64,000 bases of DNA from Candidatus Iainarchaeum sp. (GTDB lineage Archaea; Iainarchaeota; Iainarchaeia; Iainarchaeales; VGJJ01), in assembly GCA_016699555.1 (NCBI GenBank), contig CP064981.1, forward strand, positions 155,456 through 219,455. Direction: 5' to 3'. Of this stretch, positions 6,026 through 40,078 are shown in pieces (positions within the stretch are counted from its first letter, which is position 1; each line of letters starts with the position of its first letter). The notes under the pieces were generated by a model, which did not search any database, was not told the origin of the DNA, and saw only the letters and a program-made list of their open reading frames with translations. The position numbers were made by a program, and so were the translations under genes.

Positions 6026-6057
6026 CGGGTTTTATTCCACTATGCGCTTCCACCCCT

Positions 6058-7311: not shown

Positions 7312-7314
7312 GAT

Positions 7315-21535: not shown

Positions 21536-22117
21536 CTAAACGAACTGCTCATAGATTTGGGCGTTGAAGCGATAGACGGCGCGCGTGATCTTCTTTCCGT
21601 TGAATTGGTATTTCTTGAAGACGTAGCCTTTTTCCCCGTAGTATTTGAAGAAGCCGTGCTGCAGGCAGGGGTCGAGCAGCAGGGTGACGTTGTTGATGGT
21701 GCTCAACACGACGGCGTGCGTGCTTCCGTCTTCGAGCTCCATGACATACACGAATGCGTTATTGTCCCCGAGCGCGGACATGCAGGTGCACAGCAGCACG
21801 GAAAGGTCTTCGTCGTCGGATATCTTGTTGATGAGGATCTCTTTGGGGGAGAGCCAGAAGTTGAGATTGAGGTCGTTGGGGACGTATTGGATTTCTTTGG
21901 TGAGGAATTCGTATATCTTCTGGACGGTCTCGAGGTAATCCTTCTCATACGCATAGGGCTCGGGTTTGTAGAGCGTGATGAGGTTCTGGATATTGAGGTC
22001 TTCCGTGTCGACGAGGGCCTTGATCTGTCCCACGGTGCGTTGTTCTTGTTGGTTGATCAATTCGCCATACTTGTCGAGCAGGACACGGTATAGCTTGAGT
22101 TTGCCTTCGGCCGCCAT
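21536..22117 (-). CDS. Transglutaminase-like cysteine peptidase fold protein (Cys-His-Asp), cytoplasmic
   Basis: LSVLLCTCMSALGDNNAFVYVMELEDGSTHAVVLS...LLLDPC matches the papain-like transglutaminase core (C..H..D). Confidence 0.45.
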   Translation of the reverse strand: MAAEGKLKLYRVLLDKYGELINQQEQRTVGQIKALVDTEDLNIQNLITLYKPEPYAYEKDYLETVQKIYEFLTKEIQYVPNDLNLNFWLSPKEILINKISDDEDLSVLLCTCMSALGDNNAFVYVMELEDGSTHAVVLSTINNVTLLLDPCLQHGFFKYYGEKGYVFKKYQFNGKKITRAVYRFNAQIYEQFV

Positions 22118-22225: not shown

Positions 22226-22642
22226 ATGGGATTGATGCATGCGCGTGGACAAGTGGCATTCGAGTACATCGTCTTTACGGCTTTCCTCATGGGGGTGGCC
22301 GTCATCCTCTTCGCGTACTCGTTCATTTCTTACTCGACTACTATTCAAGTCACCCAAAGCCAGTCCGTCGTGGATCAGGTCTCGAATGCCGTGGATTTCG
22401 TTTATGCCAAGGGACCGGGCAACACGGTGCTGATCGACATCAAGCTGCCTTCTTCGGTGACGAATTTCCGCGTGGATCAAAATTACGTGCTGATGACGTT
22501 CCTTCCGCCGGTGGGGGGGAGCACTTCCGTATTCGCTTTCACGCGTGCGCATCTTACGCCTCAACAGTTGTATTTTGAAGAGGGCATCTACACGCTGCAG
22601 GTGAGCATGACGGATACGAATGCGACCGTGACCAACACATGA
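22226..22642 (+). CDS. Archaeal type IV pilin-like protein (class III signal peptide)
   Basis: MGLMHARGQVAFEYIVFTAFLMGVAVILFAY is a class III prepilin signal with cleavage after RG and a hydrophobic H-domain. The track start is GTG. Confidence 0.7.
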   Translation: MGLMHARGQVAFEYIVFTAFLMGVAVILFAYSFISYSTTIQVTQSQSVVDQVSNAVDFVYAKGPGNTVLIDIKLPSSVTNFRVDQNYVLMTFLPPVGGSTSVFAFTRAHLTPQQLYFEEGIYTLQVSMTDTNATVTNT

Positions 22643-24225
22643 ACTCGACGCGTGCCCAAGTGGCGACCGAAATCCTATTGAGCATCCTGATTTTGTTATT
22701 GGTGTTTGTCGTCGTACTCCTGCTCATCCACACGCGCAGCGTCTCGAATCTGGCGCTCCAACAGAATCTGCAGGAGGAGGGGATCTGCACCAAGCTGGCG
22801 TCGATCATCACCTACATGAGCTCCAATCCGCCCTACACGGAAACGAGGCTCGAACTGGAATTCGATACGAATATCGTTGCCGGCACCATCTTCGTGGGAG
22901 ACCGCATTTGTCCGTTCTTGGGGAACGTCTCCAATGTGATCCTATATCGCGGCATCGTGAAGGCCTTCGATGTGAATGGGTTGATCATTTTCACGAACGA
23001 TTTGAATTATTCTCCTTTCAATCCGCCCGTGCAAGTGCCGAATTCCAATGCGAATGTTACTGCGGGGATCGTCTTGCTGACGGACGACCAAAACCAAGTG
23101 TGGTCGACCGAGGTGCAGGCGGACGATGTGGCGTACGCCGTTTCGTTGGACGATCAGCTGGTGGACCCGGATTGGGTGGAGTTCCGTTTCTCCAACTTGG
23201 GGTTAACGCCCGCGGACACCATCACGAATGTGAGCATTTACATCAAGCACCTGCAAGGGAATCTCATCGGCCTCACCGAGGACTTGCGCCGCATCCAGTG
23301 TTGGAATGGCACGACGTGGTTGGATATTGAAGCGTATACGCCGAGCTACTCCGAAACCCTGTATCAGAGTCCCAATCTCAGCAGCTGCATTTCGGACTAC
23401 AATCTGGCCAACAACGCGCGGTTGCGCATGACCTATGAACCGAGCGGTTCGGGTTCGGGCATCTCGATCGATTATGGAAGGCTGGATGTGAATTTTTTGG
23501 AGATCGGTCAGACATTGGATTTGTGGGAGTTGGCTGTTGATTTGCCGCAGCCCGTGGACTTCCGCACGGATGTGAATTCCACTGCGAATACGTTCGGCCC
23601 TGGCGCCGGGAATGATGGGTGGGACTGGAACATCAACCAATTCGGTGGAATCGCTCCGCAAGGCATACAATTCAATGTCGATCCGAATGGGGATGGGAGT
23701 ATTGTTGATTCGAATGTGCCGGTGAACCAGCAACTCCAGATCCGCATGGGCGGCGGCGCGCCGAATGCGGGGGCATTTCCGGATGATAATGCGTTTACGG
23801 GTCCAGCGGTCTCCGGGGCGTATGGGATCCAAGTGGATGTCAATTCGTCCATGTGGTCGCGCATCCAGGGAGGGGGACAACTGCTCTTGAGCTTTGCATA
23901 TTTGGTGGACGCGGATGCGGGCTGGGGCAATGCGGCGGATGCGGGGGAAGAGGCTTGGGTCAAGGCACGCTTCGGCAGCAGCGGGAACATGAATTATTTG
24001 GGGAGCGACCTCGACACCAGCGATGACGATGGGGATGCGTCCCCTGAAATATGGTTTGCGGATACGCCGCGCGACACGACTGCATTCTTCACGCAGGACA
24101 TTTCGTCTTTCGTCACGGGAACCGGGACATATTATTTGGAGCTCGGCGGTGCGCTATCGGATTGGGATTTGGGGAACGAGGGCGTTGGGATTTATATCGA
24201 CAACATCAATCTGGTGGTAACCTAA
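22639..24225 (+). CDS. Large pilin-like protein (class III signal peptide, 528 aa), putative minor pilin or tip protein
   Basis: MNSTRAQVATEILLSILILLLVFVVVLLLI. ATGA overlap with the upstream pilin gene. Confidence 0.6.
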   Translation: MNSTRAQVATEILLSILILLLVFVVVLLLIHTRSVSNLALQQNLQEEGICTKLASIITYMSSNPPYTETRLELEFDTNIVAGTIFVGDRICPFLGNVSNVILYRGIVKAFDVNGLIIFTNDLNYSPFNPPVQVPNSNANVTAGIVLLTDDQNQVWSTEVQADDVAYAVSLDDQLVDPDWVEFRFSNLGLTPADTITNVSIYIKHLQGNLIGLTEDLRRIQCWNGTTWLDIEAYTPSYSETLYQSPNLSSCISDYNLANNARLRMTYEPSGSGSGISIDYGRLDVNFLEIGQTLDLWELAVDLPQPVDFRTDVNSTANTFGPGAGNDGWDWNINQFGGIAPQGIQFNVDPNGDGSIVDSNVPVNQQLQIRMGGGAPNAGAFPDDNAFTGPAVSGAYGIQVDVNSSMWSRIQGGGQLLLSFAYLVDADAGWGNAADAGEEAWVKARFGSSGNMNYLGSDLDTSDDDGDASPEIWFADTPRDTTAFFTQDISSFVTGTGTYYLELGGALSDWDLGNEGVGIYIDNINLVVT

Positions 24226-25394
24226 TGCCTTTATCCGACTCTTCTAGTGCACCCATGCGCTTCCAAATGCAGTGGCTTTTGGGGCCCGCGGCGTTGATCG
24301 TGTTAGCGATCGTTCTCGTGGTTGCTTTTCCTTCCGCGCCAGCGCCTTCTGCAGTGGCCCCTGACGTGGCTTCGCCAGAGCCCGTGAGCGAAGTTACGAC
24401 GATCCCTCCCGATCAGGCGCGCACGATCGCGTTGACGCAGTGTGCCGCTACCTATGACTGCACGCAAGCGGATTGTCTCGAGAAAGTGCTCACGCACATC
24501 GATTCGGCCACGCAGCGGATCCAGGCCGTACTCCGAACGCCTGCCCCCAAAATATTCCGCGATCACTTGCGCGCGGCGATCAAGCGCGGGGTAAAGGTGG
24601 AGTTGATCCTCGATTCGTCGTTGAATCCCAAATTCTTCCTGGAAGGGGCGGTCGTACGCGTAAAGTCGGTGAATAATTTTGTTGCGACGAATTTTGTGCA
24701 GGTAGACGATACCTCCGTGCTCGTGGGCACGGATCCTGCCGTCTATGCGCAGGGCGCGGACACGATTCGCGTGATCTGTCGCGAGAACGAGCGCGATCTC
24801 TTCCAGGCGTTGTTCTCTCGTCTCTGGCAGAACGAGTCGAGCGCTTTTTCGTCGCAAACCACGGAGGAAGAGGTTCTCTCCGATAGCGAGCTTTCGATCT
24901 CATCCGGAGGCAGCGGGGATGCGTGCGTGATTTCGCAGTGTCCTGCCGACAGCTACACGTGCTCTTCCACCACCAAGATATGGCAGAATTATTTTTGCAC
25001 GGAGGATGGATGCGCGTATGAGATTCTTCCGCTCTATTTCAGCGCGGATTGCGGATACGTGAATCCGGGTTTCGATGCGCAGGGGATGCCGCTCATCGTG
25101 ATCACGGAGACGGAGACGGACGAGCGTAATGTCCAGAACGAGTTCTTGGAATTCACTGCGTTGCAGTCGCTCGAGCTATCGGGCTTTTCGCTTTTGCGCA
25201 ATGGGGTTCCGCTCATCACGTTCCCCGACCCTTTCATCTTGGACGGGGCCGCGCGCGTGCATACGGGGAGCGGCACTAACACGACGACCGCTATTCACTT
25301 GGCTTCTCCCACGACGCTGTGGTCGGGGGAAACGGTTATGGCCACTCTCATCAACCCGCTCGGAAACGTGGTGGCGGAAAGGGAATTCGGGTGA
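24225..25394 (+). CDS. Membrane-anchored extracellular protein with a degenerate PLD-like domain and a C-terminal lamin-tail-like domain
   Basis: N-terminal TM LLGPAALIVLAIVLVVAF. The region AIKRGVKVELILDSS...FVQVDDTSVLVGTDPA is PLD-like but lacks HxK. The C-terminus LEFTALQSLELSGFSLLRNGVPLITFPD...GAARVHTGSGTNT looks like a lamin-tail domain. Confidence 0.4.
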   Translation: MPLSDSSSAPMRFQMQWLLGPAALIVLAIVLVVAFPSAPAPSAVAPDVASPEPVSEVTTIPPDQARTIALTQCAATYDCTQADCLEKVLTHIDSATQRIQAVLRTPAPKIFRDHLRAAIKRGVKVELILDSSLNPKFFLEGAVVRVKSVNNFVATNFVQVDDTSVLVGTDPAVYAQGADTIRVICRENERDLFQALFSRLWQNESSAFSSQTTEEEVLSDSELSISSGGSGDACVISQCPADSYTCSSTTKIWQNYFCTEDGCAYEILPLYFSADCGYVNPGFDAQGMPLIVITETETDERNVQNEFLEFTALQSLELSGFSLLRNGVPLITFPDPFILDGAARVHTGSGTNTTTAIHLASPTTLWSGETVMATLINPLGNVVAEREFG

Positions 25395-25399
25395 GGCAC

Positions 25400-25918
25400 A
25401 TGGCGCCCACTCCCTCTTCGGTCCGCGAATCCAAGCGTGGTCAAGCGGCGATCCCGGATGTGATGTTTGCAGTGACGCTGTTCATGATCATCCTGGCCGG
25501 AATCTTTTATTTTCAGGGATCGATCGAGCGTGCGACGGAGCTGCAGTTCGAGCGGAAGACATTGGATACGACGACCGCGAATGTGGCGGAGTATCTCGTG
25601 AAGAATCCCGGCACGCCATCGGACTGGGAATTGCTGTCGGACTATAACGCGGTACAGTTCTTCGGGCTAGCACTACGCGATCGCGTGTTGGATCCGGATA
25701 AGCTCGTCGCCTTTGTGAATCTCGGAAACACGAACTATGATTTCCTGCGCGAAAAGCTGCGGCTCAGCCATTTTAACTACTACATCGAATTCACTGGGGG
25801 AGCGAATGTCGCGACGGGATTGGCCCCCATCGGGTCGGTGCAATCCAGCGTGGTACGGCGCTTCGTGACCGTGAATGGGATCGAGACCACAGTGACGGTG
25901 ACCATCTATGCCACATGA
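25400..25918 (+). CDS. Pilin-like protein (class III signal peptide)
   Basis: MAPTPSSVRESKRGQAAIPDVMFAVTLFMIILAGIFYF. Confidence 0.6.
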   Translation: MAPTPSSVRESKRGQAAIPDVMFAVTLFMIILAGIFYFQGSIERATELQFERKTLDTTTANVAEYLVKNPGTPSDWELLSDYNAVQFFGLALRDRVLDPDKLVAFVNLGNTNYDFLREKLRLSHFNYYIEFTGGANVATGLAPIGSVQSSVVRRFVTVNGIETTVTVTIYAT

Positions 25919-28900
25919 TTACTATTCCATTCCCTCGCAGAGGGGTTTTGCTTTCAGCGCAGACGTGGTGCTGGCCCTCATCCTGGTTTCAGCGGTAGCG
26001 CTGCTCGTCTCGTTGCCCAACCAACCCACTTCTTTCTTGGAGGAACGACGCGTGGCGGATCAGTATGTGGACGATATCTTTTTGGCCATGGACCATTCGG
26101 GTTTTGTCTCGAATGAGATCGATACCAATGGCTTTTCTTCGGCGACGCTGCAGAACATCTACTCCTACATCCGCACGCTCTTGCCGCCGCAGTACGATCT
26201 TTATGTGGAGCTGACGAGTTATCCCGTTGATGTCAACTCCTGCCAGTCGGCGCAAGATTTTTCTTCTTGCTTTCCCGATGCCAATCGCACGGCTCTCCAG
26301 CATGGAACGGCGCTTCCCAATTCGGCTCCATTCGTGCATGGGCGAAGGGTCTTCTTCAAGCAACAGCCTGCATCCCAATGCACGGGCGGATTGGCGCCGC
26401 ACGCGGGAGGGATCTATGCGCCTTATTCTCCGCCGCTTGCCTTGGCAGAGGATGCGAACATCAATTTCGATGTGAATATTTTTCCGGCAGGTCCATTGAC
26501 GTGCGACCAGAACATTACGGTTTCATTGACGGTAACCACCTCTTCGGGGACGCGCCGCCCGGTGGACATGATGTTGGTGTTCGACCGTTCAGGGAGCATG
26601 AGCTGGGGCGGTCAAGTGAGCACGACAGCAGCTATCGGCATCGAGGTGGACCAGAACTATGCATTTGTGGCGGATTCCACTGCGGGGTTGCGCGATTTGA
26701 ATGTGAGCAGTCCGGGGCTGCCATTGATCATGGGCACCTACAACTCTCCGGGGACCGCGAACGACGTGGACGTGAATGGAAATTATGCCTATCTCGCAGA
26801 TGGGAGTTCGGGATTGCGCATCGTGAATGTGACCAACAAAGCCTCTCCTTCTTCCACGAGTCAACTGGATGTAGGGGGAACGGCATATGGTGTGGCAAGC
26901 AGGGATGGCGTGACATATGTTTCGACGTACGATAACTCCAGCATCGACGTGGAAACGACGACGAACAATAGTCCGAATCAGAACCTCTATATCGGGAGGA
27001 GCTCTTCCCAAGCGAGTGCAGCGCAATCATTCGCGCCCGGAGTGGATTTCATTTCGGGCTTTAGCGTGCGCCTGCGCAAGGTGGGGAGTCCGCCCGACAT
27101 CACGGCGCATTTGCGCACGAGCATTTCGGGGAGCGATTTGAATAGTGTCACGATTGCCGCTTCCTCGGTAGGAACCTCTTCGAGCGGCGCCTATGTGGAC
27201 GTGAATTTCGCGGGGATGGTCCCACTCACGAGCGGAAGCACGTACTTCATCGTCCTCACGACCGCGTCCAACAGTTCATCGAACTACTACGAATGGAAAG
27301 CCCGCGGGAGCAGCCCATACTCTGGGGGACAGGCCTATCAGAATACGACTTCGCAGTCGTGGGACGCGTATTTGCGCACGTATTTCGTTCCGGGCCTCGT
27401 CGTTGTCGATACGAGCAACAAGGCTTCTCCGCGCGTGATCGGCGCTTCGGCGTTGGAGGATGCCTATCACATCGCGCTGAGCGGGGATTATGCCTATGCC
27501 GCGAATGGGACGAATGGATTCCGCATTTTCGATATCTCCGCTGCTCAGCCTAGCGTGGTAGGGAATTGCTCTACTGCTGCGGGGTGCAACATTTCGAGCG
27601 GCACGACGTATGATGTGTGGCCGAGCGGCAACTATGCGTATGTCGCGAATGGATCTCAAGGGTTGCGCGTCGTGAACATCTCCAATCCCGCATCGCCGAG
27701 TCTCGTTGCCACCTACAATACGCCCGGCACAGCCTACACGGTGCGCTTGAAGGATACGAATGCCATCGTTGCGGATGATAGCTCGTTGCAGGTAATAGAC
27801 GTGACAACGCCTGCTTCTCCGGCATTGGCGACGAGCTATGCAACCCCTTACAGTTATCGCGATCTTGAAGTCCAAGGGGAATGGGCTTACATCGCCGTCG
27901 ATTCTGGAATTCCGGGGGTCATCACGATCGACCTGCGCGTGGGTCCCAAGCTCAATCAAGCGAAGACTTCTGCGACCACGTTCGTGGACTTCAATGGATG
28001 GAATAGCTCCAGCGACCAGATGGGGCTCGTGAGCTTCTCGAGCAGCGCCACGCTGGATCAGGCGCTCACGAAGACGTATTCGCTCGTTGACACCGCAGTG
28101 AACAATCTGGTCTCGAATGGGGGCACGGCCGCAGGGGATGGCATCAATACTGCAACGACCCACTTTGGCACGGCACAGACGGATGTGAGCAATACGGGGA
28201 GCCAGAACCAGGTGTTGTACATCGGACAAAATTCCACGAACGAATCGGCGGTGCAGGCCTATCAGCCCGTGCTCCCCTATCTTTCGCGTGCGGACTTGTA
28301 CATCCGTCGCGTGGGAAATCCTTCCTCTCCTTTGGTCGTTGAATTGCGTTCGAGCATTTCGGGGAGCGCGATCGTGAGCGCGACGATTCCCGCTTCTTCG
28401 GTCGGAACGTCGTATGCGCTAGTCCAGGCGAACTTCAACACGACTTCCGTCACTCCGGGCACGACGTATTATTTGGTTGCGACCACTGCCACGAATAATG
28501 CCTCGAACTACTACCAGTGGGGCGCGAGCTCGAGCAATCCTTATTCGGGGGGACAAGCCTATCAGAATACGACTTTGCAGTCGACATGGGATGCGCGCTT
28601 CGCCACGTATGGGGGCTATACCAATCCCTCTGCGCTGAAGTTCCAAATCCTGCTGGGGGATGGCCAGACGAACTCGGGGGCCAATTCTTCGACGGCCGCC
28701 ATCACGGCAAGCAACAGTGGTATCATCATCTATACCATTGGTTTCGGAGAGGATGCGGATGCGAGTGAGTTGTCGAACATCGCGAGCCTGACGGGGGGCC
28801 AATACTATTATGCGGCGGACCAGAACGCGCTGAGCGCGGTCTATCAGCTGATCGCGCAAACCATTCAAGTGATTGCGCAGGATGCCAACATCTACACCAC

Positions 28901-29537
28901 TTTCGGAAACGGGACTGTTATCGTGGATGATGGGAATGGCACGGCAATAGGCAATGGCCTCATCTTTGATATCAATACGCTGGCGCCCCAGCCATGGGTC
29001 TCCAGTTACACGTTCAACATCCCTTGCACGACTACGCTGGCGTGCAGCTCGTCGCTTCTTTCCGTCCCCGGCAGTACGACGCAGTTCCAGTACCTGGATT
29101 CGAATGGCGTGCCGCAGGTCAAGGACTGGAATGAATTCATCACGACGCCATTCAATTACCGCGATTTGAACGTGGATATCCAGGCGGGAAATCTCATCAG
29201 CACCAACAATGTCGATCTCACGGTGCGCGTCATCAGCAATGGGACGCTGGACACGAATGGGACGAGCGTGAATTTCTATCGGGGAAATCCTTCTCCTTCG
29301 ACGCTAGTGGGTTCGCAGTCCATCCCCTTCCTGTGCGGCTCGCAATCTCCAGGGTGCTTGGCTTCGAGCTATTCGTTCACGCAAAACATCCCCGCGGAAG
29401 GGGATTTGTTCGCAGTGGTGAATCCTAGCGGTACGATTCCGGAATGCAGCTACAACAACCAGGACTTCATCTACTGCTACACCCGCCCCCAGACGCAGTT
29501 CTTCACACTGGACTACTGGGCATGGATCCGAGGGTGA
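25908..29537 (+). CDS. Giant pilin-like adhesin (1209 aa): class III signal peptide, VWA domain, LVIVD beta-propeller repeats, and a duplicated ~135-aa module
   Basis: N-terminus [28 protein letters not shown] MIDAS motif [15 protein letters not shown]. VWA continuation [13 protein letters not shown]...[12 protein letters not shown] and [31 protein letters not shown]. LVIVD-type repeats such as [24 protein letters not shown] and [24 protein letters not shown]. Internal repeat A at 26985-27390 and repeat B at 28216-28615. Confidence 0.7.
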   Translation: [1209 protein letters not shown]

Positions 29538-29541
29538 TGGG

Positions 29542-30531
29542 ATGCGCGAGAAAGGAATATTGTTCACGTTCCTCACCTTTCTGTTTGTGGGAGTGGTGAT
29601 GACGGCCATCGGGTTCCATCTCCACGCGCAAGAGCGCCAATCCGAGACGACGGTGGAAGTGAGCGTGCTCAACAGCATCAATGCGAAGTACGACGATGTG
29701 ACGGACGACATCATTTCCTTGGACATGAGCATCGGCATCCCGTCCATCGTCCAGCGCTTCTTGCCGTTCCAATACACGATCGATCGCAATGTCCTGTATA
29801 CGACGCAGCAATTGCCCCTCGCTTCGGGGAGATTGGGCCTTTACTTCGACGTGATCAATACCTATCGCGTCTTCGCGACGGACAGCAACACCCAACATAC
29901 CTTCGATGGGGTGCGCATCGACTTGAATGTCCCGCAACCGCCTGCATGGGGAGGGACGCAGTCCACGGCCAAATTCAACCTGCTTCCTCATTGCGTGCAG
30001 TACCAGTTGCTGGACGACAATACATTTTCTCTTTCCAGCGCTTCATCGCTCGGTTGCTCCTCGACGTTCGATCTGATCGCGAGCATCCAGCGGATCGATG
30101 TCAATGTCATCCTGCTCGGGACGACGGACGACTACAACGTGTTGAGTTGCGACTTCAATGGGAATGCGTGTCCGTTCGAAACGTACGCGCCCGATTCCAA
30201 TTATCCTTTTTTCTCTTTGCAGGTGGACGATTCGAACTGCGTGAATTGTTCGCTGAGCTCGAATGAAAAGAATCTCGGAGTTTATTTCCGGCCGGACGAC
30301 ACCAATACGATGACCTACTCCTGCGGCAGCAGCGGCTGCAATTCGAGTCCTTTCACGGTCACGCTCAGTAATGGCGTATATTTCTCCCACGGCGGGTCGC
30401 CTATGCTCATTTCGATGGCAGTACAGTTCAAGCAACCGATCAGTTCTTTCTATTATCAGGATGCCAATTATTCCGTTACGAAACCGGGATTCGATACCTA
30501 CAAGAGCAACGTGGTGGTGTTCCCCCAATGA
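29542..30531 (+). CDS. Secreted or pilin-like Cys-containing protein, hypothetical
   Basis: MREKGILFTFLTFLFVGVVMTAIGF is a possible class III signal (KG|I). Operonic with flanking genes (4-nt overlaps). Confidence 0.45.
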   Translation: MREKGILFTFLTFLFVGVVMTAIGFHLHAQERQSETTVEVSVLNSINAKYDDVTDDIISLDMSIGIPSIVQRFLPFQYTIDRNVLYTTQQLPLASGRLGLYFDVINTYRVFATDSNTQHTFDGVRIDLNVPQPPAWGGTQSTAKFNLLPHCVQYQLLDDNTFSLSSASSLGCSSTFDLIASIQRIDVNVILLGTTDDYNVLSCDFNGNACPFETYAPDSNYPFFSLQVDDSNCVNCSLSSNEKNLGVYFRPDDTNTMTYSCGSSGCNSSPFTVTLSNGVYFSHGGSPMLISMAVQFKQPISSFYYQDANYSVTKPGFDTYKSNVVVFPQ

Positions 30532-31658
30532 ATGCCAGCGAGACGTTATTCCTGTTGCTGGGGGTCATTGCACTCCTGGGGGGAGGGTATTATCTCTACA
30601 CGCAACAACCGGTCCAGCAGGCGCAATCCATCCCTTCCCTGACGTGGGATGCTCCTACTGCGGGGCGTGTGGATGATGCGCTTTCTTTTTCGGTGGACAT
30701 CACGAATGCTCCCGGGTCGACGGTCACATTCGTGGCGGATGGGGCAACGAGCAACGGGGATTGTTCCACTAATCCCTGCCGCCTTGCATTCATGCACACG
30801 TTCTCGCGCCCGGGCCTGCATACGGTAGGGGTGCGCGTGAATGACTATACCTTTACGCGCATCGTTTCCGTGACGGATACGATCGTGCGCTGTATTGATG
30901 GTACGCGCGATAAAGCCTGCGCGGCGCCGCCCCTCCAATGCGTGAATGGGAAGTTCGTGGATAATTGTAGCATCTGTGGTTGTCCGACAGGAGAGACGTG
31001 CCAATCCAACCAATGCGTTTCGGAGGCGCTGTCGTTTGGCATCGGCACGATGACGTCGACACTACGAGGGAGCCATGCGCAGATCGGCGTTCCGCTGCAA
31101 AACCATTCTACGACAAGCGTGGACGGTCTTTTCTTGGTGTACGTGGATGTGTATGACAACACCGACGCGTTGCTGTCCTCGTTTCCGCAGCAGGTGCGCT
31201 TGGATGATGTCGCTCCCGGCGTGACGCGGACGATTGCGTCGGATGTCCAACTGCCTGCACGAGCCGCACGCATCGGGGGAAGGATTTACTCGGTGACACC
31301 GGAAGGGAATCCCGTTGCGCTGTTGGGGAGCACCACGCAGACCGTTCCGCTTGCAATCGCATTCGATAATGTCTCCCCTTCCGCGCCGGGGAACCTGCGG
31401 GTGGTGCATGAGGATGATGTTGGTATTTTGCGCTGGGATGCGAGTGCGTCCCAGGACGTAAGCGGATATGTGGTGTACCGCCAGAACTTCGACTCGCAAC
31501 AATTTACGACATACTCCGTGCTAGCGGAGACAACTGCTACACAATATGTGCTGCCCGTCTCAGGGGAATCGCTCCTCTACACGGTGCGCGCCAAAGACTT
31601 TTCGGGTAATTTGAGCGAGCCGGCGCAGGCCGTGATGGCATCAGGGAATGCCACTTAA
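30528..31658 (+). CDS. Membrane-anchored surface protein with a PKD-like domain, a Cys-rich module and a C-terminal fibronectin type III domain
   Basis: N-terminal TM ETLFLLLGVIALLGGGYYLY. CVNGKFVDNCSICGCPTGETCQSNQC. FN3-like APGNLRVVHEDDVGILRWDAS...YTVRAKDFSGNLSEP. Confidence 0.5.
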   Translation: MNASETLFLLLGVIALLGGGYYLYTQQPVQQAQSIPSLTWDAPTAGRVDDALSFSVDITNAPGSTVTFVADGATSNGDCSTNPCRLAFMHTFSRPGLHTVGVRVNDYTFTRIVSVTDTIVRCIDGTRDKACAAPPLQCVNGKFVDNCSICGCPTGETCQSNQCVSEALSFGIGTMTSTLRGSHAQIGVPLQNHSTTSVDGLFLVYVDVYDNTDALLSSFPQQVRLDDVAPGVTRTIASDVQLPARAARIGGRIYSVTPEGNPVALLGSTTQTVPLAIAFDNVSPSAPGNLRVVHEDDVGILRWDASASQDVSGYVVYRQNFDSQQFTTYSVLAETTATQYVLPVSGESLLYTVRAKDFSGNLSEPAQAVMASGNAT

Positions 31659-31685
31659 ATACTCAAATGCGTTGCTCACCTTGTT

Positions 31686-32504
31686 ATGTCTCCCGATAAG
31701 CCTAAGTCTGGCGTCATCAATGCACTCTCGCGTATTTTGCACTTGCATCAATTGCCTGACACCCCTCCTTCAACGTTGACGACGTCGGCTCCTGCGCCGC
31801 GTGTTGCTCCCGTTCTTGGAGGGCAAGGTCCTGCGATTCCACCTGCGTATGAGGGGAAACCGTATGTGATTCCCGAAGCGCGACGCGCCGTCATCCCGCC
31901 TTCCACTGTTCCGGCATCGCGCGTGGAAATGCCGGCTGCCGCTCCGCGTATGGAACCAGTCGCTGTCCCCCCACAACCATTGCAGCGCACCACTCCCGCG
32001 ATTACGCCTGCGCGTCCCACGCTTGCGCGGCCGGCGACTGCAAGTCCGACGGCGCATTCGGTGTGGCCTTTTCCTGCACCCTGGATTAAGTCAACGCCCA
32101 AAGCTACGCCGCCTGCAGCTCCTGCAACTATTCCGCCTTCAGCATCCGCGCCCGCGCCGGCCGCGAAGCCCGTTACCACTCCGGTGAAGTTCCCGGCACC
32201 CACTCCCATTGTGCGCAATCCAACGACTGCAACGAAGCCTGTATCTGTTCCGCCTGCATCAACGGCTGCTCCGGTTTCGGCTTCAATGCCCGTGGCTCCA
32301 GATGCCATCGTCACCAACTTCGATCGCATCCTGGATATCGTGCGCCTGCAGAAAAGCATCAAGCTCGACGAGTTGACGAAGCGCTTGGCGATGAACGAGG
32401 AAAAGATCGCGGAAGAATTGCAGACGCTCGAGGACAACGGCTTGATCGAGGTGCGCTATCCCGCGTTCGGCGAACCCATTATCTATTTCAAGAACGCTTC
32501 GTAG
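31686..32504 (+). CDS. Proline-rich low-complexity protein with a C-terminal winged-helix domain, directly upstream of the pilus ATPase
   Basis: P/A/T-rich for about 200 aa, then DRILDIVRLQKSIKLDELTKRLAMNEEKIAEELQTLEDNGLIEV. Confidence 0.45.
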   Translation: MSPDKPKSGVINALSRILHLHQLPDTPPSTLTTSAPAPRVAPVLGGQGPAIPPAYEGKPYVIPEARRAVIPPSTVPASRVEMPAAAPRMEPVAVPPQPLQRTTPAITPARPTLARPATASPTAHSVWPFPAPWIKSTPKATPPAAPATIPPSASAPAPAAKPVTTPVKFPAPTPIVRNPTTATKPVSVPPASTAAPVSASMPVAPDAIVTNFDRILDIVRLQKSIKLDELTKRLAMNEEKIAEELQTLEDNGLIEVRYPAFGEPIIYFKNAS

Positions 32505-32582
32505 TGCTCTAATAGGCTAACCACGGTGCGATTCATTTTCCGTTGGGGTAGCACTTATAACCTCCAATTCCTTTTTTCGGCT

Positions 32583-34073
32583 ATGCTTCATGGCAATATC
32601 GAGTCCTATTCGATCAAGTCCGACATTGATGTGGGGGTCGACATCACCTATGACGAAGCCGGTTTCGTGAAACGCTACATGCTCCGCGTTCCGGAGTTCG
32701 GGCCAGGAACGAGGGCGATGCTCAACAATCTGAAGAGCAAGGTGATTTCGGACGTCAACGTGTCGGGAGACAAACTGCTCGATGTCAAGTTCGTGGAAGA
32801 AATGAAAGGACACTTCCGCACCAAGGCACGGGCGCTCATGGAAGTGCAGCTGCCCGAGATTCCATTGGAACAACGCGACAAGCTGATTGCAGTCATTATC
32901 CACGAAATGGTGGGGTTAGGCTACATCGAGTTCATGCTCGATGACGGGAATCTCGAAGAAATCGTGGTGAACAGCGCCGAGGAACCGGTGTGGGTGTACC
33001 ACAAAAAGTATGGCTGGCTCAAGAGCAACATCTTCATCTCTCCCGAGGCGGAGATCCAGAATTATGCGAGTATTATCGCGCGCCGCGTGGGGAAGCAGGT
33101 CACGATCCTGAATCCCTTGCTGGATGCGCACTTGGTCACGGGCGATCGTGCCAATGCGTCGTTGCATCCCATTTCCTCGCGCGGAAACACGATTACGATC
33201 CGTCGTTTTCGCCGCGATCCATGGACGGTTACGGATTTCATCAATGGGGGGACGGGAAGCGCCGAGCTGATGTCGTTGATATGGTTGGCGATGGAGTATG
33301 AATTGAACATCATGGTTTCCGGTGGTACTGGAAGCGGAAAGACGACGTTGCTGAATGTCATGATGCCCTTCATCCAACCCAACCAGCGTGTGCTGACCAT
33401 CGAAGATACGCGCGAACTGCAGCTTCCCGAATTCCTGCACTGGGTGCCCATGACGACGCGCGAGCCCAATGCGGAGGGCAAGGGACAGATTTCCATGCTG
33501 GACCTGCTCGTCAATGCCTTGCGTATGCGCCCGGACCGCATCATCGTGGGTGAAGTCAGAAGACAGAAGGAAGCCGAAGTGATGTTCGAAGCCATGCACA
33601 CCGGGCATGCGGTTTACGCTACGGTGCACGCAAACACGGCGGAAGAGACCATCCAACGCTTGACGTCTCCGCCTATCGAAATCGCGCCTTCATTGTTGGA
33701 AGCGGTCCACTTGAACGCGGTCATGTTCCGCAATCGTCGGTTGGGCGTGAGAAGGATCCTCCAACTGGCCGAATTCGTCCCCATGAAGTCCGGGGCACAA
33801 GGAGGCACGACGCTGAAACCCAATATCCTTTTCCGCTGGCGCGCGCAGACGGATACGATCGAGAAATACGCGGAAAGCATCCGCCTGTTCGATGAATTGG
33901 CGCTGCACACGGGTTATACGGCCCAAGAGATCAATCAGAATCTCAGCGAGAAACAGCGCGTGCTCGAATACATGATGCGCGAGAAGATCCGCGACATCAA
34001 TGAGGTGGGGATGGCGATCGCGCAATACTATTCCGATCCCGAAGTCATATTCAAGAAAGCGGGGATCCGTTGA
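32583..34073 (+). CDS. Type IV pilus/archaellum assembly ATPase (FlaI/TadA/CpaF family, secretion NTPase)
   Basis: Walker A VSGGTGSGKTTLLN, Asp box, Walker B RPDRIIVGEVR, His box EAMHTGHAVYATVHAN. The track start is GTG; the first ATG is at 32583. Confidence 0.9.
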   Translation: MLHGNIESYSIKSDIDVGVDITYDEAGFVKRYMLRVPEFGPGTRAMLNNLKSKVISDVNVSGDKLLDVKFVEEMKGHFRTKARALMEVQLPEIPLEQRDKLIAVIIHEMVGLGYIEFMLDDGNLEEIVVNSAEEPVWVYHKKYGWLKSNIFISPEAEIQNYASIIARRVGKQVTILNPLLDAHLVTGDRANASLHPISSRGNTITIRRFRRDPWTVTDFINGGTGSAELMSLIWLAMEYELNIMVSGGTGSGKTTLLNVMMPFIQPNQRVLTIEDTRELQLPEFLHWVPMTTREPNAEGKGQISMLDLLVNALRMRPDRIIVGEVRRQKEAEVMFEAMHTGHAVYATVHANTAEETIQRLTSPPIEIAPSLLEAVHLNAVMFRNRRLGVRRILQLAEFVPMKSGAQGGTTLKPNILFRWRAQTDTIEKYAESIRLFDELALHTGYTAQEINQNLSEKQRVLEYMMREKIRDINEVGMAIAQYYSDPEVIFKKAGIR

Positions 34074-34085
34074 GGCGGTGGAAAG

Positions 34086-34979
34086 ATGATCTATCGCTTC
34101 TCCATGCCATTGAACGTATTGCCCATGCCCATGCTGCGCTGGGCCAGCAAGCGACTCATCGGATTGGGCACGCAGTTCGGGAAGATATTCCCTGTATCGG
34201 ACGCCGACATGCGGCGCGCGAGTATCCCTGTCTCGTCCAAAGAGTATGCGACGATGTCTCTTGTGATTATCGCATTCTACTTCGTCTTTTTCTTCCTCGT
34301 CTTCTATACGATCAGCTACCGCGTCTTCGGGACGCTCAATCCTGTCCTCCCCGTCGTCGTGAGCGCGGTGTTCGGGATCCTGGTGATGGTGCAATTGGTC
34401 GCGTATCCCGTCATCCAGATCAAGAAGAAGGTCCGCGACCTCGACCGCAATCTGGTTTTTGCGCTGCGCACGCTCCTCGTGCAACTGCGTTCGGGCGTAA
34501 GCTTGTTCGATTCGATGAAAGTGGTGGCGGAAGGGAATTACGGCGCTGTTTCGACGGAGTTCCACAAGGCGGTGGAGCAGATCAACACGGGGACGATCCA
34601 AGAGGCGGCGTTAGAACGCATCGCGGAGAACAATCCGAGCATCTATTTCCGCCGTACTATCTGGCAAGTCGTCAACGGCATGCGCGCGGGCGCGGATATC
34701 ACGCAAGTGCTCGCGGAGAGCGTGGATTCATTGACGGATGCGCAGTCCATCCAGATCCGCAACTATGAAAGCCAGATGAAGATCCTCTCGCTCGTGTACA
34801 TGATGTTAGGCGTTATCGTGCCAGCGTTAGGGATCACGTTCTTGATCGTGCTGTCTTCGTTCCCCCAAATCACGATTACGGATGTGTATTTCTGGGTGCT
34901 GCTGACGTTCGTGGGAATCGGGCAGTTCATGTACATGGGTATCGTCAAGAGCAAACGCCCATCGCTGTTGGGAGACTGA
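34086..34979 (+). CDS. Pilus assembly membrane protein with a T2SS-F domain (TadB-like, FlaJ N-half-like)
   Basis: T2SSF-type stretch NLVFALRTLLVQLRSGVSLFDSMKVV...AVEQINTG flanked by TM helices. Confidence 0.8.
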   Translation: MIYRFSMPLNVLPMPMLRWASKRLIGLGTQFGKIFPVSDADMRRASIPVSSKEYATMSLVIIAFYFVFFFLVFYTISYRVFGTLNPVLPVVVSAVFGILVMVQLVAYPVIQIKKKVRDLDRNLVFALRTLLVQLRSGVSLFDSMKVVAEGNYGAVSTEFHKAVEQINTGTIQEAALERIAENNPSIYFRRTIWQVVNGMRAGADITQVLAESVDSLTDAQSIQIRNYESQMKILSLVYMMLGVIVPALGITFLIVLSSFPQITITDVYFWVLLTFVGIGQFMYMGIVKSKRPSLLGD

Positions 34980-36001
34980 TGCGCATGCCTTCTTTCCGGG
35001 TCGAACTGCCATTCTTGCGTGGGATCTATGCGGCATTCGAGAAGCAATTCATGTATTTGGGCCTGAAGATCTCGGCGCGCAAGTATGTGATGAACACGCT
35101 CATCTTCAGCTTCGTGCTGGGAGTGATTGCGGTCTTTTTGGGCCTGACCACGTTCAACTTGGGGATTATCTTCAGCATCATCGCGGGAATCAGTACGATA
35201 GTGGGGATGATCGGGGCGATGTACATGCTCCTGGACCTTTCCGCCGATGGTCGTGGGAAAAAAGTGGAGTCGATCCTGCCGGATGCGTTGCAGCTCATCG
35301 CAAGCAACATCAAATCGGGCTTGACGACCGAGCGTGCACTGTTGATGAGCGCGCGCCCGGAGTTCGGGCCGTTGGAAACGGAACTGCGACGCGTTTCCGC
35401 GAAGATCTATTCGGGTTCGCCGGTGGAGCATGCGATCCTCGAGATCCCTAAACACATCAAGTCCACACTCCTCGAGCGCACGACGTGGTTGTTGGCGCGC
35501 GGTATCTCTTCCGGCGGAGAAATCGCGGATCTCCTCATGCAGCTCTCGCACAACCTGCGAAAGCAATTGGCGTTGCAATCGGAAGCGAGCGCGTCCATCT
35601 CCATCTATGTCATCCTCATCTTCTTCTCTGCCGCGTTCGGGGGGCCTGCGCTCTATGCGGTTTCTTCTTTCATCGTAGAGGTGATGACGGCGCAGACGGG
35701 TTCCACTCCTGCCATCGATCCGGGAACGATCGCTTCGGCAGGGAGCCGTTTTGCGGGATTGAGTGGCTTTGTCAGCGGAAAGGCCAGCATCATTTCGCCG
35801 GACTTCATCGTGTTTTTCTCGCAAGTCATGTTATTCGTGGGAGGGGTATTCGCTTCGCTCATCCTTGGAGCGATCGCCACCGGAAAGGAAAAGGACGGGA
35901 TGAAGTATTTGCCCGTGATGCTATTGGTCTCTTTCGGCTTGTTCTTCCTGATCCGCGCCGTCATGCATGCGGCATTCGGTCCACTGCTGTTGAATCAGTA
36001 G
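34979..36001 (+). CDS. Pilus assembly membrane protein with a T2SS-F domain (TadC-like, FlaJ C-half-like)
   Basis: LPDALQLIASNIKSGLTTERALLMSA...ELRRVSAKIYSG plus several TM helices. ATGA overlap with the TadB-like gene. Confidence 0.8.
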   Translation: MRMPSFRVELPFLRGIYAAFEKQFMYLGLKISARKYVMNTLIFSFVLGVIAVFLGLTTFNLGIIFSIIAGISTIVGMIGAMYMLLDLSADGRGKKVESILPDALQLIASNIKSGLTTERALLMSARPEFGPLETELRRVSAKIYSGSPVEHAILEIPKHIKSTLLERTTWLLARGISSGGEIADLLMQLSHNLRKQLALQSEASASISIYVILIFFSAAFGGPALYAVSSFIVEVMTAQTGSTPAIDPGTIASAGSRFAGLSGFVSGKASIISPDFIVFFSQVMLFVGGVFASLILGAIATGKEKDGMKYLPVMLLVSFGLFFLIRAVMHAAFGPLLLNQ

Positions 36002-36034
36002 CACTGGCAAAAATGATCGATCGCATTCACCGCA

Positions 36035-36733
36035 TTATTCGGTGAACAGCTCTTCTTTGGGCAAGATTTCCATGCCGTCTTGGGTAATGCGGACGGGCCG
36101 CAATTTATCCGAAATCTTCGTCTCGCGCATCTTAAGGATCCCGACGCTGCGCTGGAAGCGATTCTCGATACGCGTGTGATAGAGCAAGATGACGCCATCC
36201 GCGACATATTCTTCCAATCCGAACAAACCGGTTTGCTGCGTGGAATTTTCATTGGTGATGATCGTCGTGACGCCCAGCTTCTTGAGCATCTTTCCCAGCG
36301 ATAGGATTCTTTTTCTGGCGTCGAGTTCTTTTTCGAAGTACAAGTGAAAAATGACACCGGGGTCGATGACCATGCGCTTGGCTTTGCTTTTTGTCACTAA
36401 GTCTTCGATGCTATCGCGTAATTTGTCGAAGTCATACAATTCGATGGTCTGCATGATTATTTTTCCGGATTTGACGAGCGGAGAATAATCCCATCCGAAA
36501 ACAGCTGCTGTTTGAATGAGTTCTTCGGGCTTTTCTTCGAGTGAAAGATAGACTCCCACTTCATTGTGCTGCATGGCGCCCGAATAAAGGTATTGCAGGC
36601 AGAAGATGGTCTTTCCCGCGCCGGGGTCTCCCGTTAATGCGACGAGTGCGCCTTTGGGGACGCCGCCCTCAATCAATTCGTCCAGCCCTCTTACTCCCGT
36701 GGGAGTGCGTTCGATGGTCGTAATGGGCGGCAT
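36035..36733 (-). CDS. KaiC/RecA-superfamily ATPase, FlaH-like
   Basis: GVRGLDELIEGGVPKGALVALTGDPGAGKTIFCLQYL (Walker A) on a single KaiC-like domain of about 230 aa. An alternative ATG is at 36751. Confidence 0.7.
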   Translation of the reverse strand: MPPITTIERTPTGVRGLDELIEGGVPKGALVALTGDPGAGKTIFCLQYLYSGAMQHNEVGVYLSLEEKPEELIQTAAVFGWDYSPLVKSGKIIMQTIELYDFDKLRDSIEDLVTKSKAKRMVIDPGVIFHLYFEKELDARKRILSLGKMLKKLGVTTIITNENSTQQTGLFGLEEYVADGVILLYHTRIENRFQRSVGILKMRETKISDKLRPVRITQDGMEILPKEELFTE

Positions 36734-36872
36734 TCGCTTTCCATAGAACATTTGCAGGTTTATAACAGTTTTAGTGGCATTATTCGGTTTCCGAGAAGAT
36801 TAACCTTTAAAATGCCCAAATCCTTCGCGTTCCTTAGCATTAACCTTTCTAAGAAAGGAGGAGCGAATGCGT

Positions 36873-37331
36873 ATGAAATTTGGTGTTCGAGGCCAATCGG
36901 CGCTGGAATACTTGATGACTTATGGCTGGGCCTTGGTCGTTATTGTTATTGCAGTTGCAGCATTGGTGATTCTAATCAATCCAAGCAATATTCAGGGAGA
37001 CACTTGTGACTCCAAACTGGGTCCTTTCGTTATTACCCAGTCAAATATCTCAGCTGACAGCGCCCAACTGGTTTTGGTCAACCAGACCGGACAAGGCGTT
37101 AGCGCTATGGACTTCAATGTTACCGGAACCCACGGTGGAGCCAATGCTTACACCTCTGGAGCCGTTACCGAGTCCCCTACCTCTATGACAGCTGGAGAAA
37201 CGGCAACGTTTACGGTCGATCCCGCGAACGATTTGAATGCTGGAACCTATAACTTGACGTACTCTTTGACATACAGCGCAGGAAATTTGACCGGTTTGAC
37301 CGCTACCGCACAGTGCCGCGGAACGATCTAA
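36873..37331 (+). CDS. Archaeal type IV pilin, candidate major pilin
   Basis: MKFGVRGQSALEYLMTYGWALVVIVIAVAALVIL is a textbook class III signal peptide. Strong RBS AAAGGAGGAG is about 9 nt upstream of 36873. Small (about 150 aa) with a Thr/Ser/Gly-rich beta domain. Confidence 0.8.
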   Translation: MKFGVRGQSALEYLMTYGWALVVIVIAVAALVILINPSNIQGDTCDSKLGPFVITQSNISADSAQLVLVNQTGQGVSAMDFNVTGTHGGANAYTSGAVTESPTSMTAGETATFTVDPANDLNAGTYNLTYSLTYSAGNLTGLTATAQCRGTI

Positions 37332-37442
37332 ATCGTATGAATGCGTGCCCGCAAGGGCGCCATTCTTTTCTTTCTTTTTTTTTGTACTGCTTTTTGCTCC
37401 ACTGACCCGCAGGTTTTTAGTTTCATGTCCCTTGCATGATGC

Positions 37443-38066
37443 ATGCCCTCCGATACCAAAGGCGTTGGAAACCAATTGTGGACGGACGACAAGCTGATCG
37501 ATTTCCTGAAGCCCGGAAAAGAGCAGGAGTCCAAGCTCGCATCGCAACTGTCGCAATTACCTGCCGGCACGAGCGGCCTGCTCATCGTGCCGTCGAACCA
37601 ATACTCCATCATCCCGCGCGCCGTCATGGAATATTTTTCTCAGAAGAACATTCCCGGCGTTTATGTCTGCGTGAACCGTCCTTATCTCGATCTCGTGCGC
37701 GGCAACAATCCTTCTTCCGGGATCAAGTTCGTCGACGTGGTTACGGCGCTCACGGGAAAAGAGCTCACGGAGCTGCCCAACGTCCAATACCTGGATTCGC
37801 CTCTCGCGTTGGTGGAAATGGACATGGCGATCTCGGAGAACATGCAGAACATCGCGAGCAACCAGAAATTCCTCTTCGTGGACTCGGTTTCAACGCTACT
37901 GGTGTACAACTCTCCTCAAGCCGTGGAGAAATTCTGTCACACCATCATCAGCAAGAACCGCAACGCTTCCACGCTCGTGATATTGTTGGCCCTCGACACG
38001 GTCGAGCACAAGAACGTGTTGGATTCGCTGCACCAATTCGTCGATCAATCCATCGTGTTGCATTAG
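37443..38066 (+). CDS. Hypothetical protein, possibly a degenerate RecA/KaiC-like fold without a P-loop
   Basis: Alternating beta/alpha pattern (FLFVDSVSTLLVY...TLVILLALDT) but no Walker A. The overlapping 334-aa ORF in another frame is Arg-rich junk. Confidence 0.35.
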   Translation: MPSDTKGVGNQLWTDDKLIDFLKPGKEQESKLASQLSQLPAGTSGLLIVPSNQYSIIPRAVMEYFSQKNIPGVYVCVNRPYLDLVRGNNPSSGIKFVDVVTALTGKELTELPNVQYLDSPLALVEMDMAISENMQNIASNQKFLFVDSVSTLLVYNSPQAVEKFCHTIISKNRNASTLVILLALDTVEHKNVLDSLHQFVDQSIVLH

Positions 38067-39250: not shown

Positions 39251-39352
39251 GCCATTCACGCGCCTAAGGATGGGGACAATGAACCTAAAATGCGCACACA
39301 TTTATAAACTGCAAAAGGTTCTTCCAGCTATTCTGTGTTGGGGTTTTGTACT

Positions 39353-39988: not shown

Positions 39989-40078
39989 TCGTAGGAATGA
40001 TAGCCCGCGCGGCTATCCATTCCCATTCATTTATTAATCTCCCAATCCTATTCCTAGCAATTCACTCGTAGGGGAACC

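Follow-up and report, generated by a model that had tools for sequence, protein, structure and literature searches.

We analysed a 64,000-nucleotide stretch of DNA from Candidatus Iainarchaeum sp. (assembly GCA_016699555.1, contig CP064981.1, positions 155,456 to 219,455), referred to here as the window, and found that a tightly packed operon within it forms a complete-looking gene cluster for an adhesive type IV pilus in this DPANN archaeon. The type IV pilus locus occupies window positions 22226-38066 (genes g1 to g14; Table 1). We put at about 0.8 the probability that it encodes the assembly machine and the subunits of a type IV pilus that is not used for motility and that most likely serves adhesion or attachment. 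Attachment to other cells is the presumed way of life of DPANN archaea, and this lifestyle, together with an adhesin bearing both a VWA domain and a beta-propeller, makes adhesion to a surface or host cell the most likely function. The appendage genes of DPANN archaea are poorly annotated, and every pilin of this locus is entered as "hypothetical" in public records. An earlier reading made from the DNA letters and their open reading frames (the sequence-only reading) had placed a pilus locus at 22226-37331. All of the genes that it named are present where it had placed them, but the locus reaches 38066 and includes a DUF7504 gene, g14, which that reading had missed.

The identification of the pilus subunits relies on their N-termini. 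All six reading frames of the window were scanned for a [KR][GA] dipeptide that lies a short way downstream of a start codon and is followed within 8 residues by an uncharged hydrophobic run of 16. Ten sites were found: six are the N-termini of g1, g2, g4, g5, g6 and g13, all inside 15 kb, and the remaining four are internal or other transmembrane (TM) segments. Each of the six N-termini has the charged residue at -2, the Gly, Ala or Ser at -1 and the site ahead of a hydrophobic domain by which archaeal prepilins are recognized (PMC4371748), the cleavage itself being predicted. We retrieved 80 loci around homologues of the locus ATPase and aligned the N-termini of orthologues. This showed that almost every orthologue in each of the six families retains the [KR][GA] site (up to ~50 loci per family), across dozens of loci from Iainarchaeota, Aenigmatarchaeota and Woesearchaeota. 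The scan and the conservation of the motif thus bear out the count of six class III signal proteins given by the sequence-only reading. The start at 22226 that it assigned to the first of them is less certain than the gene itself, because orthologues of g1 have short leaders and an alternative start at 22235 (MHARGQ) may be the real one.

The residues that follow the predicted cleavage site divide the six proteins. Gln at +1 and Glu at +5 are present in g1, g2 and g13, and g4 has Gln at +1 plus a downstream Asp, while g5 (Phe at +1) and g6 (Ile at +1) fall outside the DUF361-type signal. Gln at +1 and Glu at +5 (QXSXEXXXL) define the DUF361/EppA class of substrates (PMC4371748, PMC2910488), and Gln at +1 is required by EppA (PMC2910488). 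The processing sites RGQV, RAQV, RGQA and RGQS of the locus are matched in type by those of the Epd pilins studied experimentally in Methanococcus maripaludis, RAQI, KGQV, KGQL and KGQI (PMC4371748). The sizes of the proteins in the wider families are also informative. Orthologues of g2 in distant relatives have just 120-130 aa, so that g2 itself appears to be a small minor-pilin core enlarged by ~400 aa that are specific to its clade, and the ancestral set would comprise four small pilin-like proteins (g1, g2, g4 and g6) plus the large protein g5. By analogy, we infer that this set recalls the bacterial combination of four minor pilins plus an adhesin that primes or tips the filament. DUF7287 is matched weakly by g4 of the window and by seven members of the g4 family.

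The assembly machinery is recognizable by conventional family searches. The g9 protein matches T2SSE (E 8e-39) and has intact Walker A (GGTGSGKT), Asp box (IEDTRE), Walker B (DRIIVGE) and His box motifs; its start at 32583 is supported by homologues of exactly 496 aa. Its closest solved structure is Archaeoglobus fulgidus GspE (2OAP, 237 bits), with FlaI and CpaF at ~178 bits each. The products of g10 and g11 are paralogues of one another. The g10 protein aligns to the N-terminal half of ArlJ/UpsF and the g11 protein to the C-terminal half of UpsF, so the usual two-domain archaeal platform appears to have been divided collinearly into two genes. Of the related loci, 63 reach far enough to show this region, and in 60 of them such a split pair comes directly after the ATPase gene. 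A FlaI/TadA-type secretion ATPase with two separate T2SS-F proteins, as proposed in the sequence-only reading, is therefore well supported by the T2SSE and T2SSF matches and the intact motifs. Some close homologues of the ATPase (P0003, P0014 and P0016) have ~678 aa and include an intein domain (PF14890).

The arrangement of these genes is conserved. The order g1, g2, g4, g5, g6, (g7), g8, ATPase, platform 1 and platform 2 recurs across Iainarchaeota, including the complete genome GW2011_AR10 (L020), with a g13-type pilin and a KaiC/DUF7504 pair following nearby, and parts of it recur in loci of Aenigmatarchaeota and Woesearchaeota. The closest relatives of the ATPase come from genomes named Diapherotrites/Iainarchaeum and Micrarchaeota. 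Several loci of DPANN type (L013, L036, L039, L061 and L067) are filed in bins named Falkowbacteria, Chloroflexota, Thaumarchaeota and Methanosarcinales, and these are probably binning errors. In the window, the operon is compact, but the description of its genes as mostly overlapping by 4 nt does not hold: ATGA overlaps of this kind occur only at g1/g2 and g6/g7. There are 1-nt overlaps at g2/g3 and g10/g11 and an 11-nt overlap at g4/g5, and the other junctions are gaps of 4-78 nt.

Among the six class III proteins, g13 is the likely major pilin, as the sequence-only reading had also supposed. The product is 100% identical to the NCBI protein IPJ89_01105 and would have 154 aa if translation started at 36867. 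Reading the flanking DNA, we found a TATA-like TTTAAAA and a GGAGG upstream of the gene and a GC-rich palindrome followed by an oligo-T tract downstream, and these promoter-like, Shine-Dalgarno and terminator-like elements make g13 look like a monocistronic unit. In an alignment of 111 sequences, Q8, A10 to L21, C45 and C148 are invariant, and the distant relative L035 has two copies of the gene in tandem. The 152-aa protein contains five N-glycosylation sequons, or 3.3 per 100 residues, compared with ~0.5 per 100 in the cytoplasmic proteins of the locus. The structure predicted for g13 is a helix joined to a beta-sandwich head of 7 strands, and the modelled head resembles the sandwiches of FlaF, FlaG and archaellins.

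These features of g13 bear directly on whether a long filament is made at all. The locus could instead build a short pseudopilus or a bindosome-like display structure that pushes g5 and the anchored proteins through the envelope. Five "minor" class III proteins for one small pilin, a large multidomain cargo and the absence of a retraction ATPase would suit such a structure, and PMC2910488 and a preprint describe archaeal class III signals on proteins that form no filament, such as substrate-binding proteins. However, no substrate-binding proteins are encoded at the locus, and the promoter, Shine-Dalgarno sequence, terminator, invariant helix, sequons and tandem copies of g13 are hallmarks of an abundant shaft subunit. 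We therefore consider a display structure improbable.

The largest of the class III proteins, g5, provides the main clue to function. Pfam analysis detected LVIVD repeats (E 1.6e-39) and a VWA domain (1e-12), the latter in pieces. A metal ion-dependent adhesion site (MIDAS) motif, DRSGS, is present at residues 226-230, and the MIDAS residues D226, S228, S230, T740 and D918 (full-length numbering) are invariant in an alignment of 62 sequences. An AlphaFold model of residues 30-1209 has a predicted local distance difference test score (pLDDT) of 87.7. In this model, N-terminal helices and a small sheet continue the TM helix as a pilin-like module, the VWA fold is interrupted by a large beta-propeller (eight-bladed, LVIVD) and two beta-sandwich inserts, and the C-terminus forms two Ig-like domains. 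A Foldseek search with the model returned eight-bladed and other propellers, for example the designed protein Tako8 (TM-score ~0.6, target-normalised) and DDB1; the top 50 matches held generic propellers only, and PilY1 was not among them. On the predicted structure, g5 is best described as a modular pilin with an adhesion-type head, and analogy with known tip proteins makes it a candidate tip adhesin. The suggestion in the sequence-only reading that the 528-aa and 1209-aa proteins are candidate minor or tip adhesins is consistent with the minor-pilin core of g2 and with the VWA/MIDAS and propeller domains of g5. The g5 family is widespread in DPANN archaea, where its members are annotated merely as "VWA domain-containing protein", and this metal-dependent VWA/propeller protein is the obvious candidate for target recognition.

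A pilus of this kind need not serve adhesion as such, and its main role might be DNA uptake or the bridging of cells for exchange with a host. In favour of this, the biosynthetic capacity of DPANN archaea is reduced. Pili-like appendages have also been imaged on ultrasmall groundwater cells, assigned to the Candidate Phyla Radiation (CPR) or to DPANN by size only, and appear to reach into host cells (PMC7906910). Against this, VWA/MIDAS domains and propellers are typical adhesion modules, and no ComEC, DprA or other DNA-translocation gene lies at the locus or in its conserved neighbourhood, so that uptake or bridging as the principal role is distinctly improbable.

Two further genes of the operon, g3 and g7, provide an internal comparison for the class III motif. 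Both encode surface proteins with plain N-terminal anchors from which the motif is absent, so the motif is not something that anchors in this operon generally share. The g3 protein has a weak match to a PLD-like or TrmB C-terminal-like domain and is found only in close relatives (9 loci), and g7 has a weak PKD match and an FN3-like end. The existence of these true anchors, and the lack of any above-threshold pilin family among the window proteins, might suggest that all six N-termini are ordinary signal anchors or Sec signals of surface proteins that merely lie beside a secretion ATPase. The signal family PF04021 (Class_IIIsignal/DUF361) falls below threshold on the window proteins, yet matches to it are seen in four of five g1 orthologues, with one score above gathering, and in 10 of 144 family members in all. 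Given also that six families keep a basic residue and Gly or Ala directly before the hydrophobic stretch, with family-specific residues at +1 and +5/+6, ordinary anchors are very hard to credit.

Beside the platform genes lies g12, which encodes a RecA/KaiC-type ATPase and raises the question of an archaellum. The protein matches KaiC (PF06745, E 5e-59), its best solved relatives are KaiC proteins (169-197 bits), and it contains the Walker A motif GDPGAGKT, the Walker B motif MVID and an SLEE motif. The sequence-only reading had called it KaiC/FlaH-like. The KaiC-type ATPase stands, but the protein is closer to KaiC than to FlaH and fails the ArlH model, with 45 bits against a cut-off of 215. 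The same reading had described the gene as divergently oriented, which is true with respect to g13; with respect to the second platform gene, g11, it is convergent. It had also held that a grouping of the ATPase and platform genes with FlaI/FlaJ loci that have archaellins nearby would speak against its pilus. The best NCBIfam match of g9 is indeed the FlaI model (NF058587), but at 286 bits against a cut-off of 550, and Pfam and NCBIfam searches found no archaellin, ArlF/ArlG (FlaF/FlaG), ArlCDE or ArlX in any locus protein. As both the FlaI and ArlH models fail, these components are missing and the platform is split, the locus does not encode an archaellum with g12 as its ArlH/FlaH, a reading to which we give almost no credence.

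The partner of g12 is the newly added g14. Its product matches DUF7504 (4.7e-6) and lacks the Walker A motif/P-loop. All 18 orthologues match DUF7504 and 13 of them also match KaiC. A BLAST comparison of g12 and g14 detected no similarity, and the relationship is visible only through the Pfam matches of the g14 family. By these matches we regard g14 as a conserved partner of g12 that is probably a P-loop-less pseudo-KaiC. In distant loci the two genes are adjacent and co-directional, several kb from the platform genes (L011, 19684-21032; L043, 18556-20025). The inverted KaiC gene of the window clade, with g13 between the KaiC and DUF7504 genes, is thus a local rearrangement. KaiC-family ATPases have been noted near archaeal pilus loci before (PMC4858521).

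The protein encoded directly upstream of the ATPase, g8, was described in the sequence-only reading as proline-rich with a winged helix. It is Pro-rich, and the winged helix is supported by its orthologues, in which the C-terminal domain matches winged helices of the TrmB/HTH_24 type. The conserved part is the C-terminal ~70 aa, with the signature TDYDRIL...LE..GL[IV]E[VL].YP.[FI]G.P, and a g8-like gene directly precedes the ATPase gene in 38 of 67 loci. Of 1.84 billion cluster representatives, 216 contain the domain, which mostly lies C-terminally in proteins whose length varies widely. N-termini of the g8 family share a short amphipathic helix (for example GLFAGLAKILHLH or GFFRRILAKIRR), which in the window protein spans residues 8-20 (hydrophobic moment 0.64); a TM segment is lacking. 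A low-complexity linker follows the helix and total lengths range from 160 to ~1000 aa (for example L043:8553-9980 and L011:7386-9926). It is speculation from these sequence features that g8 might be a membrane-associated adaptor rather than a classical repressor. We also considered a fusion of the g8 winged helix to the ATPase, and rejected it: ATPase homologues bearing PF23989 carry a different small helical N-terminal domain.

If the locus builds an adhesive type IV pilus, the six precursors would be inserted into the membrane by Sec and cut after [KR][GA] by an unlinked class III (A24) signal peptidase. A hexamer of the ATPase, docked on the g10/g11 platform, would then lift the pilins out of the membrane by ATP-driven extraction and polymerisation. 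The g1, g2, g4 and g6 proteins would form a priming or tip complex carrying g5, whose metal-dependent VWA and propeller surfaces would bind the target. Beneath this complex, g13 would polymerise through its invariant N-terminal helix into a shaft that is probably N-glycosylated. The KaiC (g12) and DUF7504 (g14) proteins may modulate expression or ATPase activity, much as ArlH does for ArlI, and more speculatively g8 could be a winged-helix regulator or adaptor of the ATPase at the membrane.

Several observations weigh against the adhesive pilus and this model of it. The tip complex, the adhesion role and the regulatory roles are drawn by analogy only. No Pfam or NCBIfam pilin family scored above threshold on the six window proteins, whether at full length or over the N-terminal 56 aa. 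The modelled head of g13 is a generic Ig-like fold, for which Foldseek places adaptin and chaperone domains above archaeal pilins. Since g5 and g6 lack Gln at +1, they may need a different or permissive peptidase. Finally, an A24 prepilin peptidase is absent from the 64-kb window, as the sequence-only reading had noted. Besides the two platform proteins, the multi-TM open reading frames in the window encode an Rce1/CPBP-type protease (53698-54312), a Yip1-like protein (51339-51965) and an M50-like protein (58238-58771); others overlap better-supported genes on the opposite strand, mostly as antisense artefacts of low-complexity genes, or lack the motif. A crude screen that combined a TM count with a GxGD-type motif found no peptidase candidate within 10 kb of the ATPase in the 80 related loci. 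With no linked peptidase, processing of the six precursors is a prediction, and the enzyme would have to be encoded elsewhere in the genome. The machinery was therefore called "complete" with too much confidence.

Table 1. Features of the type IV pilus locus and its flanks, in window coordinates. Arrows mark predicted cleavage sites; the last column gives the N-terminal pattern conserved in each class III family.
Feature	Position	Strand	Length (aa)	Description	N-terminal pattern of family
u1	21536..22117	-		cytoplasmic transglutaminase-like protein, DUF553 / CEP76-peptidase-like; divergent from operon	
g1	22226..22642	+	138	small minor pilin, predicted class III signal RG↓QVAFEY, DUF361 type	[KR][GA]↓Q...E[YF] (~35 orthologues)
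g2	22639..24225	+	528	pilin-like protein, RA↓QVATE	[KR][GA]↓Q...E
g3	24225..25394	+	389	surface protein, plain N-terminal TM anchor, Cys-rich	
g4	25400..25918	+	172	predicted minor pilin, RG↓QAAIPD	[KR]G↓Q, conserved D few residues downstream ([KR]G↓Q....D)
g5	25908..29537	+	1209	predicted modular pilin, candidate tip adhesin, RG↓FAFSAD, VWA + LVIVD	[KR][GA]↓F[AV][FI]S.[DE]
g6	29542..30531	+	329	pilin-like protein, KG↓ILFTF, no acidic residue near +5	[KR]G↓[IV][LF]F[TS] (~37 orthologues)
g7	30528..31658	+	376	surface protein, plain N-terminal TM anchor, Ig-like domains	
g8	31686..32504	+	272	cytoplasmic protein, amphipathic helix, Pro-rich linker, C-terminal winged helix	
g9	32583..34073	+	496	PilB/VirB11-family assembly ATPase	
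g10	34086..34979	+	297	platform protein, one T2SSF domain	
g11	34979..36001	+	340	platform protein, one T2SSF domain	
g12	36035..36733	-	232	single-domain KaiC-type ATPase	
candidate promoter/ribosome-binding region of g13	36806..36852	+		TATA-like TTTAAAA at 36806-36812, GGAGG at 36848-36852; putative function	
g13	36873..37331	+	152	likely major pilin, RG↓QSALEYLMTYGWAL	[KR][GA]↓Q[SA]A[LM]E[YF]LMTYGWA
terminator-like element	37345..37385	+		GC-rich palindrome, then long oligo-T tract; putative function	
g14	37443..38066	+	207	DUF7504 protein, degenerate KaiC/RecA-like	
g15	38081..39301	-	406	alpha-helical protein, recurs beside KaiC/DUF7504 pair	

Two genes flanking the locus may also be related to it. 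The window copy of u1 has only weak Pfam matches, and all 10 of the orthologues tested match DUF553 or CEP76-peptidase-like families. Its position, divergent from g1, is kept in 13 related loci. The protein has a C/H/D-type motif and no TM segment; the motif DDEDLAVFLCS...HAFV...LDP is conserved, and an N-terminal coiled coil is present in many of the copies. Makarova et al. (2016) linked transglutaminase-family peptidases to clade 1 pilus loci, those being surface proteins, and a link between u1 and the pilus operon is possible. At the other end, g15 has no Pfam match and recurs beside the KaiC/DUF7504 genes in close relatives, L035 (20282-21343) and L043 (20055-21350); its connection to the pilus system is uncertain.

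Elsewhere, the window encodes aIF5B, aIF2-gamma, Kae1, the ribosomal proteins S6e and S24e of archaeal type, and a Taw1/TYW1-type wyosine enzyme with wyosine-formation and radical-SAM domains, a gene content that marks the DNA as archaeal. Two copies of a paralogous cassette are present, at 4092-8169 and 39353-41184. Its secreted proteins (4092-4769, 4775-6025, 6058-7311 and 39353-39988) have a signal peptide and a Cys-containing C-terminal domain of ~120 aa (...N.DGNFS.AFSG.DTN.VLKVW.G...GGWEKDC...), which shows 42-57% identity between copies and has no Pfam match. Each cassette group is followed by a paralogous anchored protein (7315-8169; 40079-40792 plus 40714-41184). The second of these (40079-41184) is split over two frames and the C-terminus of 4092-4769 diverges, so both may be frameshifted pseudogenes or assembly errors. 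On the reverse strand, 14103-17939 encodes a protein of 1278 aa that carries a signal peptide, extended coiled-coil-like stretches and, at the C-terminus, a TM anchor followed by a basic tail. Pfam gave no meaningful match for this protein, which may belong to the major proteins of the envelope.

A broader proposal can be made for the adhesive pilus, although we hold it as doubtful. The locus could represent the signature organelle with which several DPANN phyla attach to hosts or surfaces: a pilus of the Epd/Tad lineage with a full-size glycosylated pilin, a MIDAS-VWA/LVIVD tip that sets target specificity by its variation, and assembly gated by an undescribed cytoplasmic trio consisting of a g8-type winged-helix protein tethered through its amphipathic helix, a KaiC-type ATPase and a pseudo-KaiC DUF7504 protein. 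Epd-type signals, a split platform and a full-size pilin within one system bear on the evolution of the Epd and Tad lineages. If the ATPase and platform proteins branch at the base of Epd plus Tad, the locus would show the Tad ancestor before its pilin was shortened.

The locus can be compared with characterized systems. The archaellum has a homologous ATPase and platform, subunits with class III signals and a RecA-type accessory ATPase, as the locus does, whereas the locus platform is split, unlike ArlJ. The bacterial Tad/Flp (type IVc) system shares with the locus a platform divided into TadB-like and TadC-like halves, a G↓xxxxEY motif (in g1 and g13) and a CpaF/TadA-family relative, g9 scoring 178 bits to CpaF. 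In contrast to Tad, the locus platform halves stand in collinear N-then-C order, g13 is not a short Flp peptide and the host is an archaeon; CpaF is also no closer to g9 than FlaI is, and both are more distant than A. fulgidus GspE. Family scans of the locus proteins gave no match to the secretin RcpA, TadZ/CpaE or RcpB/C, and with neither secretin nor TadZ the locus does not encode a Tad system of the bacterial type. An archaeal Epd-like system is considered the origin of Tad (PMC6668835).

The closest parallel is the Epd pilus of Methanococcus maripaludis (clade 1 of Makarova et al., 2016; System 1). Both have one ATPase with two single-T2SSF platform genes, several minor pilins beside one major pilin (the minor ones being essential in Epd), K/R-G/A-Q sites with Glu at +5, and a secondary RecA-type ATPase and a transglutaminase-like gene nearby. 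The differences are equally clear. The Epd major pilin has ~70 aa and no head, whereas g13 has 152 aa and a predicted beta-sandwich head and is therefore not a short pilin; the Epd platform genes precede the ATPase gene, whereas here the ATPase comes first; the secondary ATPase of the locus is a KaiC-type protein partnered by DUF7504; the locus contains no EppA gene; and two of its six signals lack Gln at +1. Denise et al. define the lineage that unites Epd-like and Tad systems by a platform encoded as two genes with one T2SSF domain each, by short pilins and by a secondary ATPase (PMC6668835); their supplements do not mention AR10 or Iainarchaeum. A 2026 preprint by Sivabalasarma and Albers describes System 1 as having a split platform and occurring in DPANN, and reports two platform genes in some DPANN 4A loci as well, along with a PilY-like adhesin (bioRxiv 10.64898/2026.04.22.720090). 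Judged by protein families and motifs, we describe the locus as Epd/Tad-like in organization and signal type and do not claim membership of clade 1, which the closeness of g9 to A. fulgidus GspE among solved structures neither favours nor rules out. To this extent the sequence-only reading, which had proposed an archaeal type IV pilus of Tad/Epd-like character, agrees with the split platform, the Epd-type sites and the PF04021 matches of g1 orthologues.

The tip module has its counterparts in bacteria. PilY1 of the type IVa tip complex has the same combination of VWA domain and propeller, and is co-encoded with four small pilin-like proteins, an analogy rather than a demonstrated homology. Unlike that of PilY1, the g5 propeller is of the LVIVD type and would be nested within the VWA domain, and the tip position of g5 is assigned by analogy. 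In Streptococcus sanguinis PilB, a vWA module is grafted on a pilin N-terminus, as appears to be the case in g5; this modular pilin and PilY1-type tip complexes are described in PMC7541494 and PMC8179133.

A locus of the same kind appears among the DPANN "dark matter" islands of Makarova, Wolf and Koonin (2019), whose Fig. 2A includes an island with a secretion ATPase, TadC, TadB and surface proteins (PMC6393860). These authors gave no family-level description, and read the neighbouring unrecognisable signal-peptide proteins as divergent pilins. This is therefore a system of a kind already described, and our analysis refines its annotation and offers experimental targets without overturning current understanding. 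It adds the conserved cleavage motifs, the modular VWA-propeller pilin, the winged-helix partner and the KaiC/DUF7504 pair, which together give a concrete parts list conserved across several phyla, in which the invariant N-terminus of g13 could be used as a search motif.

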